From NCBI GenBank assembly GCA_034678605.1, contig JAXDBQ010000039.1, forward strand, positions 65,172 through 129,171: 64,000 nt of DNA, written 5' to 3'. Positions 14,594-17,140 of the stretch are shown one piece after another; position 1 is the first letter of the stretch, and each line of letters starts with the position of its first letter. Below the pieces are notes generated by a model that searched no databases, had not been told where the DNA came from, and saw nothing but the letters and a program-made list of their open reading frames with translations. The position numbers and the translations under genes are program-made. The DNA comes from Patescibacteria group bacterium (lineage in GTDB: Bacteria; Patescibacteriota; Minisyncoccia; Minisyncoccales; UBA5738).

Positions 14594-15709
14594 ATGGGAA
14601 AGGAAATATATTTTTTGGCAATTGAGACATCGTGCGATGACACTTCGATCGCTGTTTTGCGAGCCAAAGAGGACGGCAAGGGAAAACTGAAAAAGATCGA
14701 AGCGTTATCCAATATAGTTTCCTCGCAGACGCAATTGCACGCGGGGTATGGCGGGGTTTATCCGTTTTTGGCCAAGCGCGAGCATCAAAAAAATTTGCCG
14801 CTGGTTTTTGAGCAGGCGGTTAAAAAAACTGATTTGTCAAAGCTGGAATTCATCGCCGTTACCAAGGGTCCGGGATTGGATCCTTGTTTGTGGACCGGCA
14901 TTAATTTCGCGCAAAACTTGGCAAAAAAATGCGATTTGCCGCTGGTGGGCGCCAATCATCTGGAAGCGCATTTTTTGGCCAATTTACTCGCCTTGGGTAT
15001 CGGCGAGGATGAATTTGCTAAAAAGTATTTGCCGGCGGCGTGCCTGGTGGTTTCGGGCGGCCACACGCTGTTGTTTTTGGCCAAGGCGATTGGCGATTAC
15101 CAATTGCTGGGGCAGACATTGGATGACGCGGCCGGCGAGTGCTTTGACAAAGCGGCGCGCATTCTTGGCCTTGGCTATCCGGGCGGCCCGGAAATCTCCA
15201 AGTATGCCAAACAATATATTAGCAAAGATTACAGGGGTTGGACCCCTGTAAAATTGACAGGGGTTGAACCCCTGTTGGTTAAGCTGCCGCGGCCGATGAT
15301 CAACCAAAAAAATTATAATTTCAGTTTTTCGGGGCTAAAGACTGCGATTTTGTATTTGCATCAAAAGCAAGATGAAGAAATTAAAAAATCACCGGAATAC
15401 CGGGCGGCGATGAGCCATGAGATCCAGCAGGCGATCATTGATGTGTTGGTTAAGAAAACTTGCCGCGCTGCAAAAGAATTTGCGGCGCGGTCGATCATTA
15501 TCGGCGGGGGCGTGAGCGCCAACCTTGCCTTGCGCGAGGCAATGAAAGCCGCCGCCAAAAACCTTGGCGTTAGATTTCTCGCGCCGTCAGCCGACTTGTC
15601 GGTGGATAACGCGGCCATGGCCGGAGTGGCCGGTTATTTTGCTTGGAAGCGAAGCGAAATTGCCGCCAACCCTGACGATCTGGTTTCCGAACCGAATTTG
15701 GGAATTTGA
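14594..15709 (+). CDS. tsaD: tRNA N6-adenosine threonylcarbamoyltransferase
   Basis: It shows LAIETSCDDTS, GANHLEAH, GGHT and FSFSGLKTA motifs. The first ATG is at 14594. The gene contains an in-frame 45-nt palindromic insert. Confidence 0.9.
   Translation: MGKEIYFLAIETSCDDTSIAVLRAKEDGKGKLKKIEALSNIVSSQTQLHAGYGGVYPFLAKREHQKNLPLVFEQAVKKTDLSKLEFIAVTKGPGLDPCLWTGINFAQNLAKKCDLPLVGANHLEAHFLANLLALGIGEDEFAKKYLPAACLVVSGGHTLLFLAKAIGDYQLLGQTLDDAAGECFDKAARILGLGYPGGPEISKYAKQYISKDYRGWTPVKLTGVEPLLVKLPRPMINQKNYNFSFSGLKTAILYLHQKQDEEIKKSPEYRAAMSHEIQQAIIDVLVKKTCRAAKEFAARSIIIGGGVSANLALREAMKAAAKNLGVRFLAPSADLSVDNAAMAGVAGYFAWKRSEIAANPDDLVSEPNLGI
15231..15275. repeat. double-hairpin palindromic element, in frame within tsaD
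   Basis: The sequence ACAGGGGTTgGACCCCTGT-aaaattg-ACAGGGGTTgAACCCCTGT is 45 nt (15 codons) and encodes RGWTPVKLTGVEPLL. Confidence 0.9.
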
Positions 15710-15728
15710 ATTTTCGAATTGTGGATTT

Positions 15729-15810
15729 TGCAGGGGCGATTCGGCGTAATCGCCCGCATTGAATCCGCATGCGGGCGAAAACATAGTTTCGCCCCTGCGG
15801 ATGCAAATAC
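15729..15810. repeat. GC-rich REP cluster (2 hairpins)
   Basis: It reads gCAGGGGCGATTcggcgTAATCGCCCgc ... GCGGGCGAAAacataGTTTCGCCCCTGcggatgcaaatac. Confidence 0.85.
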
Positions 15811-15842
15811 TTAAAAAGCGCATTACGCGCTTTTTGAATTTG

Positions 15843-15881
15843 TGCCGAAGGTGGGAGTTGAACCCACACAAGGTTGCCCTT
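15843..15881 (-). other. partial tRNA-Leu: duplicate of variable arm, T-arm and 3' acceptor strand only
   Basis: The minus-strand sequence aagggcaaccttgtGTGGGttcaactCCCACcttcggca aligns with the 3' third of the tRNA at 16502-16585. Confidence 0.8.
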
Positions 15882-16485
15882 AATTTTTTTCGGGTTTTAC
15901 GATTTTCAAAAATTCGGAAACATTTTTTGACAATTTGATGTTGTAGATAATTTTTTGGTTTGACGAATTCCTTTTGGCGCGATATATTTTTGGTTCAAAT
16001 CTCAACGAAACCATCATCTCGAAAACATCGTTTGCCAATTCGAGGATGATGGTGGAAAACATTACTGTTTTATAATTTCTGTCGAAATATATCGAGCCGT
16101 CGGTTTCGATCAATCCTTTAAGGCAATTTATCGCGTATTCTTTATCTTGCTTGATCCAACGCGGCACACTGGCGTTTTGGCGGAATTTCGAACCCTTACC
16201 GGATTTCCAGCCAAGCAGTTTTTCCAAATGGTTCGAATAAACGCTTATGTCCAGGCAATTTTCTTTGCGGTCGACGATGCTCACTTTGTTTTGCGGCAAA
16301 AGCAATTCAAGGGATTTGGCGATCCGTTCGGTTAGAAGAGGATATTTTTTATCGCAAGTGATCCGCAATCTTGTCGCGCGGCCGTTGGGATTGGATAAGT
16401 TCCCGTCGCCCAGCGCCAATCCGATGACATAGGATCGCAAAAGTTTATTTTCGTTAATAATTGTATTCCGAAAATAACCTTTCAT
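15880..16485 (-). CDS. LAGLIDADG homing endonuclease (double-motif, monomeric type)
   Basis: 201 aa with two LAGLIDADG motifs, VIGLALGDGNL and LKGLIETDGSI. It starts 16 nt after the tRNA-Leu 3' end with no obvious SD. Confidence 0.85.
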   Translation of the reverse strand: MKGYFRNTIINENKLLRSYVIGLALGDGNLSNPNGRATRLRITCDKKYPLLTERIAKSLELLLPQNKVSIVDRKENCLDISVYSNHLEKLLGWKSGKGSKFRQNASVPRWIKQDKEYAINCLKGLIETDGSIYFDRNYKTVMFSTIILELANDVFEMMVSLRFEPKIYRAKRNSSNQKIIYNIKLSKNVSEFLKIVKPEKN

Positions 16486-16501
16486 TTGGCGGTTTTAGGT
16501 G

Positions 16502-16585
16502 TGCCGAGAGAGGGAGTTGAACCCTCAAGAGGTTGCCCTCACAGCATTTTGAGTGCTGCATGTTTGCCAGTTTCATCACCTCGGC
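16502..16585 (-). tRNA. tRNA-Leu(CAA), type II with long variable arm; CCA not encoded
   Basis: Manual cloverleaf: acceptor GCCGAGG/TCTCGGC, 3-bp D stem ATG/CAT, anticodon stem CAGCA/TGCTG with loop CTCAAAA, variable hairpin GAGG-gcaa-CCTC, and T arm GAGGG-ttcaact-CCCTC. Confidence 0.85.
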
Positions 16586-16638
16586 AAAAAGTTTGCTGAT
16601 TATTTGTCCACCATTTAATCAGCGGAACCGGATTAATT

Positions 16639-16998
16639 TTATCGATTGTACCCAAGCCAAATGTCGATTACTTGTTCCATGCGCATCATTCGGGAATAGT
16701 TTTTATCGGTTACGCCGCATTTATTTTGAGCTGCGGTCAGAATCTTTGGCCCGAGAGTTTTGCGTTCCTTACTTAAACTTGCAAGGGATAAAATCATGTC
16801 AAATTGGTCGATGGTTTTTGCTAATTCAATCAATCGATCGACAATTGGCGATTTTGCCTCATCGGGGCACTGTTCGCTTAATCCAAATTCCAACAATTTG
16901 TTAAAATTTTTCCTTTTTAAGATTTACTCAAGGATTCCTTCTTTGTCTCTTTCTGTTGCTTCCAGATATTCTTTTTCCAAATCTTGGAAGGATTTCAT
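16639..16998 (-). pseudogene. hypothetical ORF interrupted by one in-frame TAA
   Basis: GGAGGAG lies 4 nt upstream of the ATG at 16998. There are 24 codons, then TAA (16926-16924), and the same frame continues for 95 more codons to 16639. Confidence 0.3.
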
Positions 16999-17140
16999 AA
17001 TTCTCCTCCTTTTTGCTGATAATAAGGTAGCGCAAAAATGGGGAAAAAGCAAGGCGGAATTATAAATGCAAGTGTTCATCGAGGACTGATCTCTGCGAGT
17101 ACGCCGAGGACAGACCTCGACAAACCAAAAATGCGATTTA

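Follow-up and report, generated by a model that had tools for sequence, protein, structure and literature searches.

A probable homing endonuclease cassette that carries its own copy of the tRNA-Leu(CAA) gene in Patescibacteria

Free-standing homing endonuclease genes that supply a replacement for the part of the host gene they displace are known from fungal mitochondria. In these mORF gene hybrids, described for atp6 of Allomyces macrogynus and for atp6, atp9, cox2 and nad3 of Glomus sp. (PMC3630166), a free-standing LAGLIDADG or GIY-YIG open reading frame (ORF) lies in the 3′ part of the host gene and carries a foreign C-terminal part which is expressed, while the native C-terminus is left unused downstream and is closer to the sequences of relatives than to the copy in use (PMC3630166). 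Here we analyse a locus on a stretch of 64,000 nucleotides (nt) from a Patescibacteria genome (contig JAXDBQ010000039.1, positions 65,172 to 129,171; hereafter the window), in which a complete tRNA-Leu(CAA) gene is followed by a homing endonuclease gene (HEG; of the LAGLIDADG family unless stated otherwise) and then by a second copy of the tRNA 3′ part. We think it likely that this is a homing cassette of the gene-hybrid type with a bacterial tRNA gene as its target, and that a particular, HEG-linked (H-type) allele of tRNA-Leu(CAA) moves together with the free-standing LAGLIDADG gene 3′ of it. The original prediction, made from the sequence of the window, had regarded such a strategy as unprecedented for a free-standing LAGLIDADG gene, a view that the fungal mORFs contradict.

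In the following, HEG+ and HEG-less designate loci with and without the HEG, the tRNA-Leu(CAA) allele of HEG-less loci is called native or N-type, and L- and P-numbers are labels of the genome loci, metagenome contigs and homologue groups compared with the window. As in the mORF hybrids, the ORF of the window is free-standing and not intron-borne, the replacement part lies upstream and the native 3′ part downstream, and the displaced fragment is closer to the tRNA of a relative (40/40 identical to L127) than to the copy in use (33/40). There are also clear differences. The target is a bacterial chromosomal tRNA gene instead of a mitochondrial protein gene, and it falls outside the described set. 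Function would be preserved by compensated base pairs rather than by synonymous or conservative codons, and the element-linked allele comprises the entire gene, not its 3′ end only. Whereas mORFs are often in phase with their host gene, the ORF cannot fuse in frame with its host and appears dependent on transcription and processing of the tRNA. Finally, the family to which it belongs is fixed on one tRNA species across the phylum.

Another related system is SegB of phage T4, a GIY-YIG HEG in the phage tRNA gene cluster whose 27-bp site includes the T-psi-C stem-loop motif; the enzyme cuts the HEG-less allele, and the HEG and neighbouring tRNA markers are co-inherited via co-conversion (PMC2330249). 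The HEG of the window is likewise free-standing and adjoins a tRNA gene, but it encodes a LAGLIDADG enzyme for which cleavage is predicted, it resides in a cellular genome, and the displaced 3′ fragment remains in place whereas SegB leaves no duplicated target fragment. In Patescibacteria, surveys of introns and rRNA insertions have described intron-borne HEGs in conserved RNA genes (PMC13011429, PMC11270868), and the study devoted to tRNA introns reported HNH-family HEGs in tRNA-Asn of this phylum and LAGLIDADG HEGs only in cyanobacterial tRNA-Arg (PMC13011429). LAGLIDADG genes linked to tRNA-Leu(CAA) are mentioned in neither of the two, and a full-text literature search of incomplete coverage gave no report of them or of such a cassette on a bacterial tRNA gene. 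Our locus shares with these HEGs the phylum and the logic of targeting highly conserved RNA genes. However, intron-borne HEGs reside within the RNA gene and the insertion is removed from the RNA, while here there is no intron and a spare copy keeps the gene intact. A last likeness is to integrase-type tRNA islands, where, too, the tRNA 3′ part is rebuilt by the inserted DNA and part of the tRNA recurs as a direct repeat at the far end. In contrast to such islands, the window has no integrase, the insert measures 660 nt, the repeats are non-identical functional alleles, and transfer of the cassette would proceed by homologous repair, as judged from an identical block and a co-converted flank, and not by site-specific recombination.

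The layout of the locus on the minus strand is given in Table 1. The complete tRNA-Leu(CAA), which ARAGORN and Rfam both find, and the spacer without a ribosome-binding site, read from the sequence itself, had been recognized at the outset. This tRNA (16501-16585 in the ARAGORN call) is the only one called across the 64-kb window, and the spacer contains no AGGAGG-like Shine–Dalgarno motif. The stop codon of the HEG (TAA, 15882-15880) is the first triplet of the tRNA fragment. The predicted overlap of the duplicate with the stop codon is therefore real, but with the T of TAA belonging to it the duplicate measures 40 nt (15882-15843) and not 39. A degenerate 38-mer spanning both copies matches these two places only (0 expected, 100 shuffles). 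The fragment is identical to the 3′ part of the in-use tRNA at 33 of 40 positions. The differences convert a G-C into an A-T pair in the variable stem and an A-T into a T-A pair in the T stem, both compensated; two more lie in the acceptor, where pairing is kept via G-U, and one is unpaired. Altogether the 7 differences leave all 16 pairs intact, a result that random sets of 7 substitutions give in 0.7% of trials (P ~0.007). They are of the paired, compensatory kind that had first been described. ARAGORN accepts a chimera of the tRNA 5′ part and the fragment as tRNA-Leu(CAA). The fragment alone gives no tRNA, and no partner 5′ acceptor-like strand (GCCGRRG) was found for it between the tRNA and the fragment.

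Table 1. Features of the tRNA-Leu(CAA)–HEG locus (positions in the window)
Feature	Position	Strand	Basis or remark
In-use tRNA-Leu(CAA), H-type allele	16502..16585	-	ARAGORN; Rfam tRNA 51.6 bits
16-nt spacer CACCTAAAACCGCCAA	16486..16501	-	Read from sequence
Free-standing monomeric double-motif LAGLIDADG HEG, 201 amino acids	15880..16485	-	Pfam PF14528 (LAGLIDADG_3); AlphaFold model
Displaced N-type tRNA 3′ 40 nt: variable arm, T arm, 3′ acceptor strand	15843..15882	-	Relatives' tRNA
Intrinsic-terminator-like hairpin AAAAAGCGC-GTAAT-GCGCTTTTT	15813..15835	-	Now ends the tRNA–HEG unit

Native alleles were sought by scanning metagenome contigs for the T-arm/acceptor sequence (pattern GWGGGTTCAACTCCCWCYYTCGGCA). 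This pattern is too general: most of the 120 matches are tRNA-Leu genes (CAG, CAA, TAA, TAG) of unrelated lineages, and only L111, L127, L159, L165, L191, L198 and L199 were informative. L127 has the gene order of the window without the HEG, namely TopA (77% amino acid identity), one tRNA-Leu(CAA), TsaD (76%) and a BadF/G-type gene (61%). The last 40 nt of its tRNA, TAAGGGCAACCTTGTGTGGGTTCAACTCCCACCTTCGGCA, are those of the window fragment (40/40), and they are followed by CCAATT and a hairpin orthologous to CAAATT and the hairpin of the window. The same arrangement, with a single tRNA and an orthologous terminator, is found in L159 (TsaD 59%). An uninterrupted tRNA-Leu with the GTGGG/CCCAC arm, which the original prediction had proposed to look for in related genomes, is thus present in L127, L159 and L191, all of them HEG-less, with anticodon CAA, the acceptor strand CTTCGGC and the orthologous terminator behind it; no tandem second tRNA was seen at these empty sites. 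Since the single tRNA of the HEG-less relatives shows the same sequences, the fragment and the terminator can be assigned to the native 3′ end of the resident gene. By this comparison the fragment is the part of the native gene that was displaced, and the upstream tRNA and the ORF are what was added. The T arm and acceptor of the fragment are identical in the window, L084-L088, L111, L159 and L191, and the L199 fragment equals the 3′ 40 nt of L127. In L084-L088 the variable-arm bases of the fragment (TGAAAACAACCTC) differ from those of the window.

The H-type tRNA accompanies the HEG in the window, L084-L088, L199 and L001, and the N-type is found in the HEG-less L127, L159 and L191. L084-L088 constitute the P0002 group, five contigs from five samples whose endonuclease is 84% identical to that of the window (81% for L199). 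Their tRNA is 100% identical to the window tRNA, which shows one D-loop difference from those of L199 and L001. The N-type allele of L191 departs from the H-type at 9 positions, located both in the 5′ half (6, 10, 22, 26) and in the 3′ half (58, 61, 75, 77, 78). Going from N to H, pair 6-78 changes from A-U to G-C, 10-26 from G-C to A-U, 61-75 from U-A to A-U and 7-77 from G-C to G-U. All 24 pairs are kept in either type, which 9 random substitutions manage in 0.3% of trials (P ~0.003), and both alleles appear to be functional tRNAs. Because the H-type differs from the native allele in the 5′ half too, the whole gene has been replaced, as opposed to a chimera joining a native 5′ part to a foreign 3′ third. 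The initial proposal of a mobile cassette that brings its own replacement part and displaces the original is in agreement with the empty sites, but has to be amended in that the entire tRNA, not its 3′ third, is exchanged.

Two further observations concern these alleles. D-loop position 17, situated between the class-specific positions 10 and 22, is C or T (L127, L199 and L001 versus L191, L085 and the window) and tracks host lineage, not N/H class, a pattern which seems to point to patchy conversion or parallel change. In L192, a HEG-less metagenome contig of another lineage with its tRNA at ~20-104, the tRNA 3′ part is identical to the H-type at 39 of 40 positions (TGAGGGCAACCTCATGAGGGTTCAACTCCCTCTCTCGGCA), and this tRNA is possibly a relative of the source of the HEG-linked allele.

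The evidence for mobility, polymorphism and an identical cassette, covers one species-level lineage, represented by the HEG+ loci L084-L088 and the HEG-less allele L191. When L191 is compared with L085, the downstream sequence is 99% identical (127 nt) and the upstream sequence ~90%, and the occupied allele is 660 nt longer, of which the HEG ORF takes 606 nt. Every pair of L084-L088 is identical at 755/755 nt over the segment that opens with the tRNA and closes with the fragment. The upstream flanks of these loci are 82-98% identical (100% over 309 nt in the pairs among L084, L085 and L088) and the downstream flanks 87-100%, with downstream gene content varying too. The block of perfect identity has its right limit as early as 51 nt past the stop codon, i.e. 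12 nt beyond the fragment, and its left limit 254-623 nt upstream of the ATG; limits are given because the upstream region of L087 is a multi-segment mosaic without a simple co-conversion boundary. The lineage accordingly shows what is looked for in a homing element, a presence/absence polymorphism with an intact empty target and an element more similar than its flanks. Since an identical block in diverged flanks coexists with the empty allele L191, the cassette bears the signature of a recent spread by homologous repair, with co-conversion through the tRNA into the upstream flank. A second sweep of the cassette was sought in the P0008 and P0053 groups, where populations are near-clonal.

The 3′ region of topA, ~1 kb upstream of the tRNA, is itself a multi-segment mosaic among the strains (L084-L088 versus L191). 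In the part upstream of the L087 tRNA at least two switches between L191-like and L084-like haplotypes are seen, and the P0008 group has a hypervariable stretch within topA. Recombination appears to be frequent around the tRNA–HEG locus.

The T arm and acceptor of the fragment are 28/28 identical between the window and L084 despite a synonymous divergence (dS) of 1.2 between their HEGs. This is not what neutral decay since the split of the HEG lineages would leave, because third-codon-position identity of the two HEGs is only 0.61. The most economical reading is that repeated re-homing into N-type alleles, which persist in each population as seen with L191, refreshes the fragment. In L001 the fragment is decayed and has a 6-nt deletion, the state to be expected after long fixation of the HEG. 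The conservation could also mean that the fragment is functional in itself and directly selected. It might aid processing or stability of the HEG mRNA as a tRNA-like element, or supply another 3′ half which, when joined to the 5′ half, gives rise to a second isodecoder. The 28/28 identity extends over the window, L084-L088, L111 and L199 at a HEG dS of 1.2, with variable-arm bases and flanks diverging; moreover, the fragment folds into variable-arm and T-arm hairpins right before the terminator and yields a valid tRNA when joined to the 5′ part. On the other hand, it is decayed, truncated or absent in most family members, in which the upstream tRNA is always intact, and the decayed copy of L001 occurs at a similar distance from the window. 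A GCCGA(A/G)G 5′ strand that could serve as its partner is absent between tRNA and fragment, no intron-like RNA was detected with Rfam, and periodic re-homing into coexisting N-type alleles such as L191 accounts for the conservation without any function. We consider a functional fragment of this sort improbable. It is somewhat less doubtful, though still unlikely in our view, that the fragment is more than a footprint and is selected as a tRNA-like module, made up of T arm and acceptor, with which the HEG transcript ends. It might then be needed for RNA processing or stability, or form an obligatory right-hand homology arm by which the cassette could enter any genome with tRNA sequence alone. 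If this were true, the tRNA–HEG pair would be a self-contained gene drive replacing an essential tRNA allele across Patescibacteria.

The double-motif LAGLIDADG nature of the ORF, proposed from the start, is borne out by Pfam, by an alignment of 30 homologues and by a fold match to I-DmoI. The Pfam LAGLIDADG_3 match (expect value, E, 9.6e-9) covers the C-terminal half of the 201-amino-acid protein only. Both motifs, GLALGDG (D27) and GLIETDG (D129), are nevertheless present; G26-D27-G28 and E127-T128-D129-G130 are invariant in the alignment, the acidic residue of either motif thus being kept. The AlphaFold (AF2) model (predicted local distance difference test, pLDDT, 90.8) shows the order H-E-E-H-E-E-H twice, that is, two alpha-beta-beta-alpha-beta-beta-alpha domains, and its top Foldseek matches are I-DmoI (full length, E 9e-10, template modelling score 0.67-0.75), PI-SceI and I-Tsp061I. 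The ratio of nonsynonymous to synonymous divergence (dN/dS) of ~0.105 versus homologues shows that the HEG is under purifying selection. With dS values of 1.2-2.0 among the window, L084 and L001, compared to 0.94-1.32 for TopA, the gene appears old and seems to have roughly co-diverged with its hosts at a deep scale. As to its expression, the ATG of the HEG is found 0-3 nt from the tRNA 3′ end or overlapping it in L003, L006-L010, L020, L032, L050 and L072. Since the spacer of the window lacks a ribosome-binding site and the ATGs of relatives abut the tRNA, expression of the HEG is likely to occur via read-through from the tRNA promoter, with release by tRNA 3′ processing. The HEG mRNA would then have a short leader or be leaderless.

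Some of these features would also suit a domesticated, vertically inherited protein, for example a WhiA-like regulator or a tRNA-associated factor, with the fragment as the relic of an ancient event and no current mobility. The strong purifying selection (dN/dS 0.105), the similar dS of HEG and TopA, the constant position across many Patescibacteria classes and the name 'WhiA' given to homologues by some sources all fit such a protein. They have to be set against the presence/absence polymorphism and the 755-nt cassette that is 100% identical in backgrounds of 82-98% identity. Both catalytic acidic residues are invariant, the fragment is conserved too well for an ancient relic, and the protein has no WhiA-type helix-turn-helix domain, its 201 amino acids matching I-DmoI end to end. 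Domestication is thus very improbable in our opinion.

If the locus is indeed a homing cassette of the gene-hybrid type, the enzyme would cut the N-type tRNA-Leu(CAA) gene at a site of ~22 bp, and double-strand-break repair from a HEG+ chromosome would copy the HEG together with the H-type tRNA and part of the upstream flank. On the right, crossover would take place in or just past the fragment, each invasion renewing the fragment from a functional native gene. As the comparison with the empty sites shows, the 5′ portion of the resident N-type gene, as far as about position 44, has been overwritten, and the last 40 nt have stayed behind with the terminator as a dead fragment. The H-type substitutions would render the carried copy uncuttable, and changes of the partner bases would keep the tRNA folded and working. 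Compared with an intact N-type gene, the fragment differs nowhere but to the left of position 44. Between the H-type and the L191 N-type there is no difference over positions 27-57, and the first ones are at 58 and 61; relative to the N-type of the window itself, 46 and 57 differ as well. Because both copies in a HEG+ genome must be uncuttable, the recognition site should lie at about positions 40-61, in accordance with the 20-22 bp of a LAGLIDADG site. The predicted site, roughly TGCTGT(A/G)AGGGCAACCT(T/C)GTGTGGG, would take in the anticodon-stem 3′ strand and the variable arm and extend into the first bases of the T stem.

A number of points weigh against this account. Both the target site and the H-type immunity follow from exclusion alone and should be regarded as provisional. 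T stems resembling the H-type are also seen in other lineages whose tRNA has no HEG (L192), and N-like GTGGG stems in the HEG-linked tRNAs of distant clades (L008, L010). A universal 'immune' signature of HEG-linked tRNAs was considered and rejected, the T stems GAGGG, GTGGG and GGGAG all occurring in the family. HEG divergence is at least equal to host divergence, the deep-scale pattern looks vertically inherited, and mobility is seen in a single species-level lineage. For the window's own species, exact look-ups of the TsaD and HEG proteins gave three identical HEG+ contigs only and no HEG-less allele. Furthermore, a few homologues are without an adjacent tRNA (L005, L016, L025, L029, L041).

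Two other explanations of the duplicated tRNA part have hardly any standing. According to the first, the fragment is unrelated to the HEG and is what remains of a second tRNA-Leu gene in tandem, or else an att-type repeat of an integrase island. Duplications of tRNA 3′ ends are the classic footprint of such islands, and partial tRNA-Leu copies exist in several unrelated metagenome matches (L101, L107, L110, L144, L145). However, the empty sites contain a single tRNA and no tandem copy, the finding that had been named beforehand as deciding this question, and 606 of just 660 inserted nt belong to the HEG ORF. As the original prediction had noted, no integrase gene is present: the insert holds the HEG only, and it is adjoined by TopA, a small ORF, TsaD and a BadF/G-type ATPase. 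The repeats differ at 7/40 positions, whereas att repeats are normally identical, and fragments recur specifically after members of the HEG family. A tandem-gene remnant and an integrase island were ruled out on the grounds of the empty sites, the L191-L085 comparison, the gene content and this recurrence. The second explanation, that the 660 nt between tRNA 5′ part and fragment are a spliced intron, of group I or another type, draws on the valid tRNA formed by the two parts and is almost certainly wrong, since no intron family was among the Rfam matches in 15500-17000, which at E up to 10 were limited to the tRNA and chance-level ones, the 16 nt and the duplicated tRNA part that remain besides the ORF offer no space for a ribozyme core, a complete tRNA sits upstream, and the junction falls at the start of the variable arm (position 44) while known tRNA group I introns are located in the anticodon loop (PMC13011429); a group I intron or other structured RNA was ruled out by the scan, the junction position and the complete upstream tRNA.

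The association of the HEG with tRNA-Leu(CAA) extends over the whole family. At E up to 1e-3, 1219 homologues of the 201-amino-acid protein were counted, and wherever a source names the organism, it belongs to Patescibacteria or to a candidate phylum within this group. Scanning a single genome for each species provided 80 loci from many candidate classes, in 70 of which tRNA-Leu(CAA) is located upstream on the same strand. Upstream DNA was usable in 74 loci, and in 66 of these the tRNA is at most 60 nt before the HEG. A profile of the tRNA 3′ part detected remnants directly after the HEG in 6/70 loci at E below 0.05, and in about 10 at weaker scores, with no such remnant at E below 0.05 in control segments from the same 70 loci. 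The remnants range from the last 9-20 nt to a piece starting in the anticodon loop (L072). The connection between HEG and fragment that had been supposed is therefore supported by recurrence, but most family members have lost the fragment, which appears to be a transient footprint rather than a constant part of the element.

Several family members show additional peculiarities. In L005 and L041 (2680-3000 in both), two of the homologues without an adjacent tRNA, the HEG is immediately preceded by a promoter-like sequence common to both, TTGAAAAT-N-TGGTAAAATAAA; L005 has a tRNA-Leu(CAA) 2.9 kb upstream of the HEG, and the motif TGGTAAAATAAAGCAC of the promoter-like sequence also precedes the tRNA in L021. 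L016, L025 and L029 encode ~54-56% identical homologues on GC-rich contigs binned as 'proteobacterium' or Terriglobales, in which ARAGORN found no tRNA, and L016 has a tRNA-end-like motif, CCTCGGCACCA, just upstream of the HEG. Either these bins are wrong or the family may extend beyond Patescibacteria. In L068 (2714-3000) and L073 (2661-3000) the full tRNA is separated from the HEG by extra tRNA-Leu 3′ pieces, consisting of the T-arm 3′ strand and the acceptor, and by ~200 nt of non-coding DNA, and L068 adds an inverted copy of the tRNA 3′ end, which suggests possible repeated or nested invasions of one site. Downstream of the HEG of L048 (3635-4064; also L040, 3937-4099) there are tRNA-like genes on the opposite strand, an array of four head-to-tail 92-nt copies called tRNA-Ser(ACT) by ARAGORN that adjoins a tRNA-Thr(TGT). 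Both the anticodon and the tandem arrangement of this array are unusual.

In the surroundings of the locus in the window, a promoter scan gave no convincing sigma-70 site on the minus strand upstream of the tRNA. A TACAAT hexamer ~60 nt upstream of the tRNA, present in relatives too, is merely a lead. It is found at the 3′ end of an 85-amino-acid ORF (16639-16896, minus strand) between topA and the tRNA, and resembles the -10 element preceding the tRNA of relatives. This ORF has no Pfam match; an identical copy exists in L081, and tblastn found none in L084, L127 and L001. A long GC-rich imperfect hairpin (15730-15798, minus strand), with the arms GCAGGGGCGA...TCGCCCCTGC and an inner GCCCGCATGC/GCATGCGGGC-like stem, is situated in the interval that separates the terminator hairpin from the tsaD 3′ end (15709). 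The 191-nt region that contains it has a folding z of -6.4, and a similar CGTAGGGGCGA...TCGCCCCTACG element is present at the corresponding place in L199. This hairpin could belong to a repeat element, or it could terminate transcription in both directions, tsaD being convergent.

In the context of the known free-standing HEGs, the locus would extend the strategy of bringing one's own replacement copy, known from protein genes of fungal mitochondria, to an essential tRNA gene of a bacterium, a target in which function must survive through compensatory base-pair changes. Two classes of tRNA allele, native and HEG-linked, persist across lineages, which is of relevance to the cycle of homing, in which invasion is followed by fixation, decay and re-invasion. 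Many genes of the family are labelled 'WhiA' or 'hypothetical', and annotators should be warned that tRNA fragments adjoining them would be footprints. A family of more than 1,200 homologues tied to tRNA-Leu(CAA) leads to a testable target-site prediction and may represent a new group of compact I-DmoI-like meganucleases. Finally, the identical cassette in diverged backgrounds provides direct sequence evidence for gene flow based on homologous recombination between strains of uncultured ultra-small bacteria.

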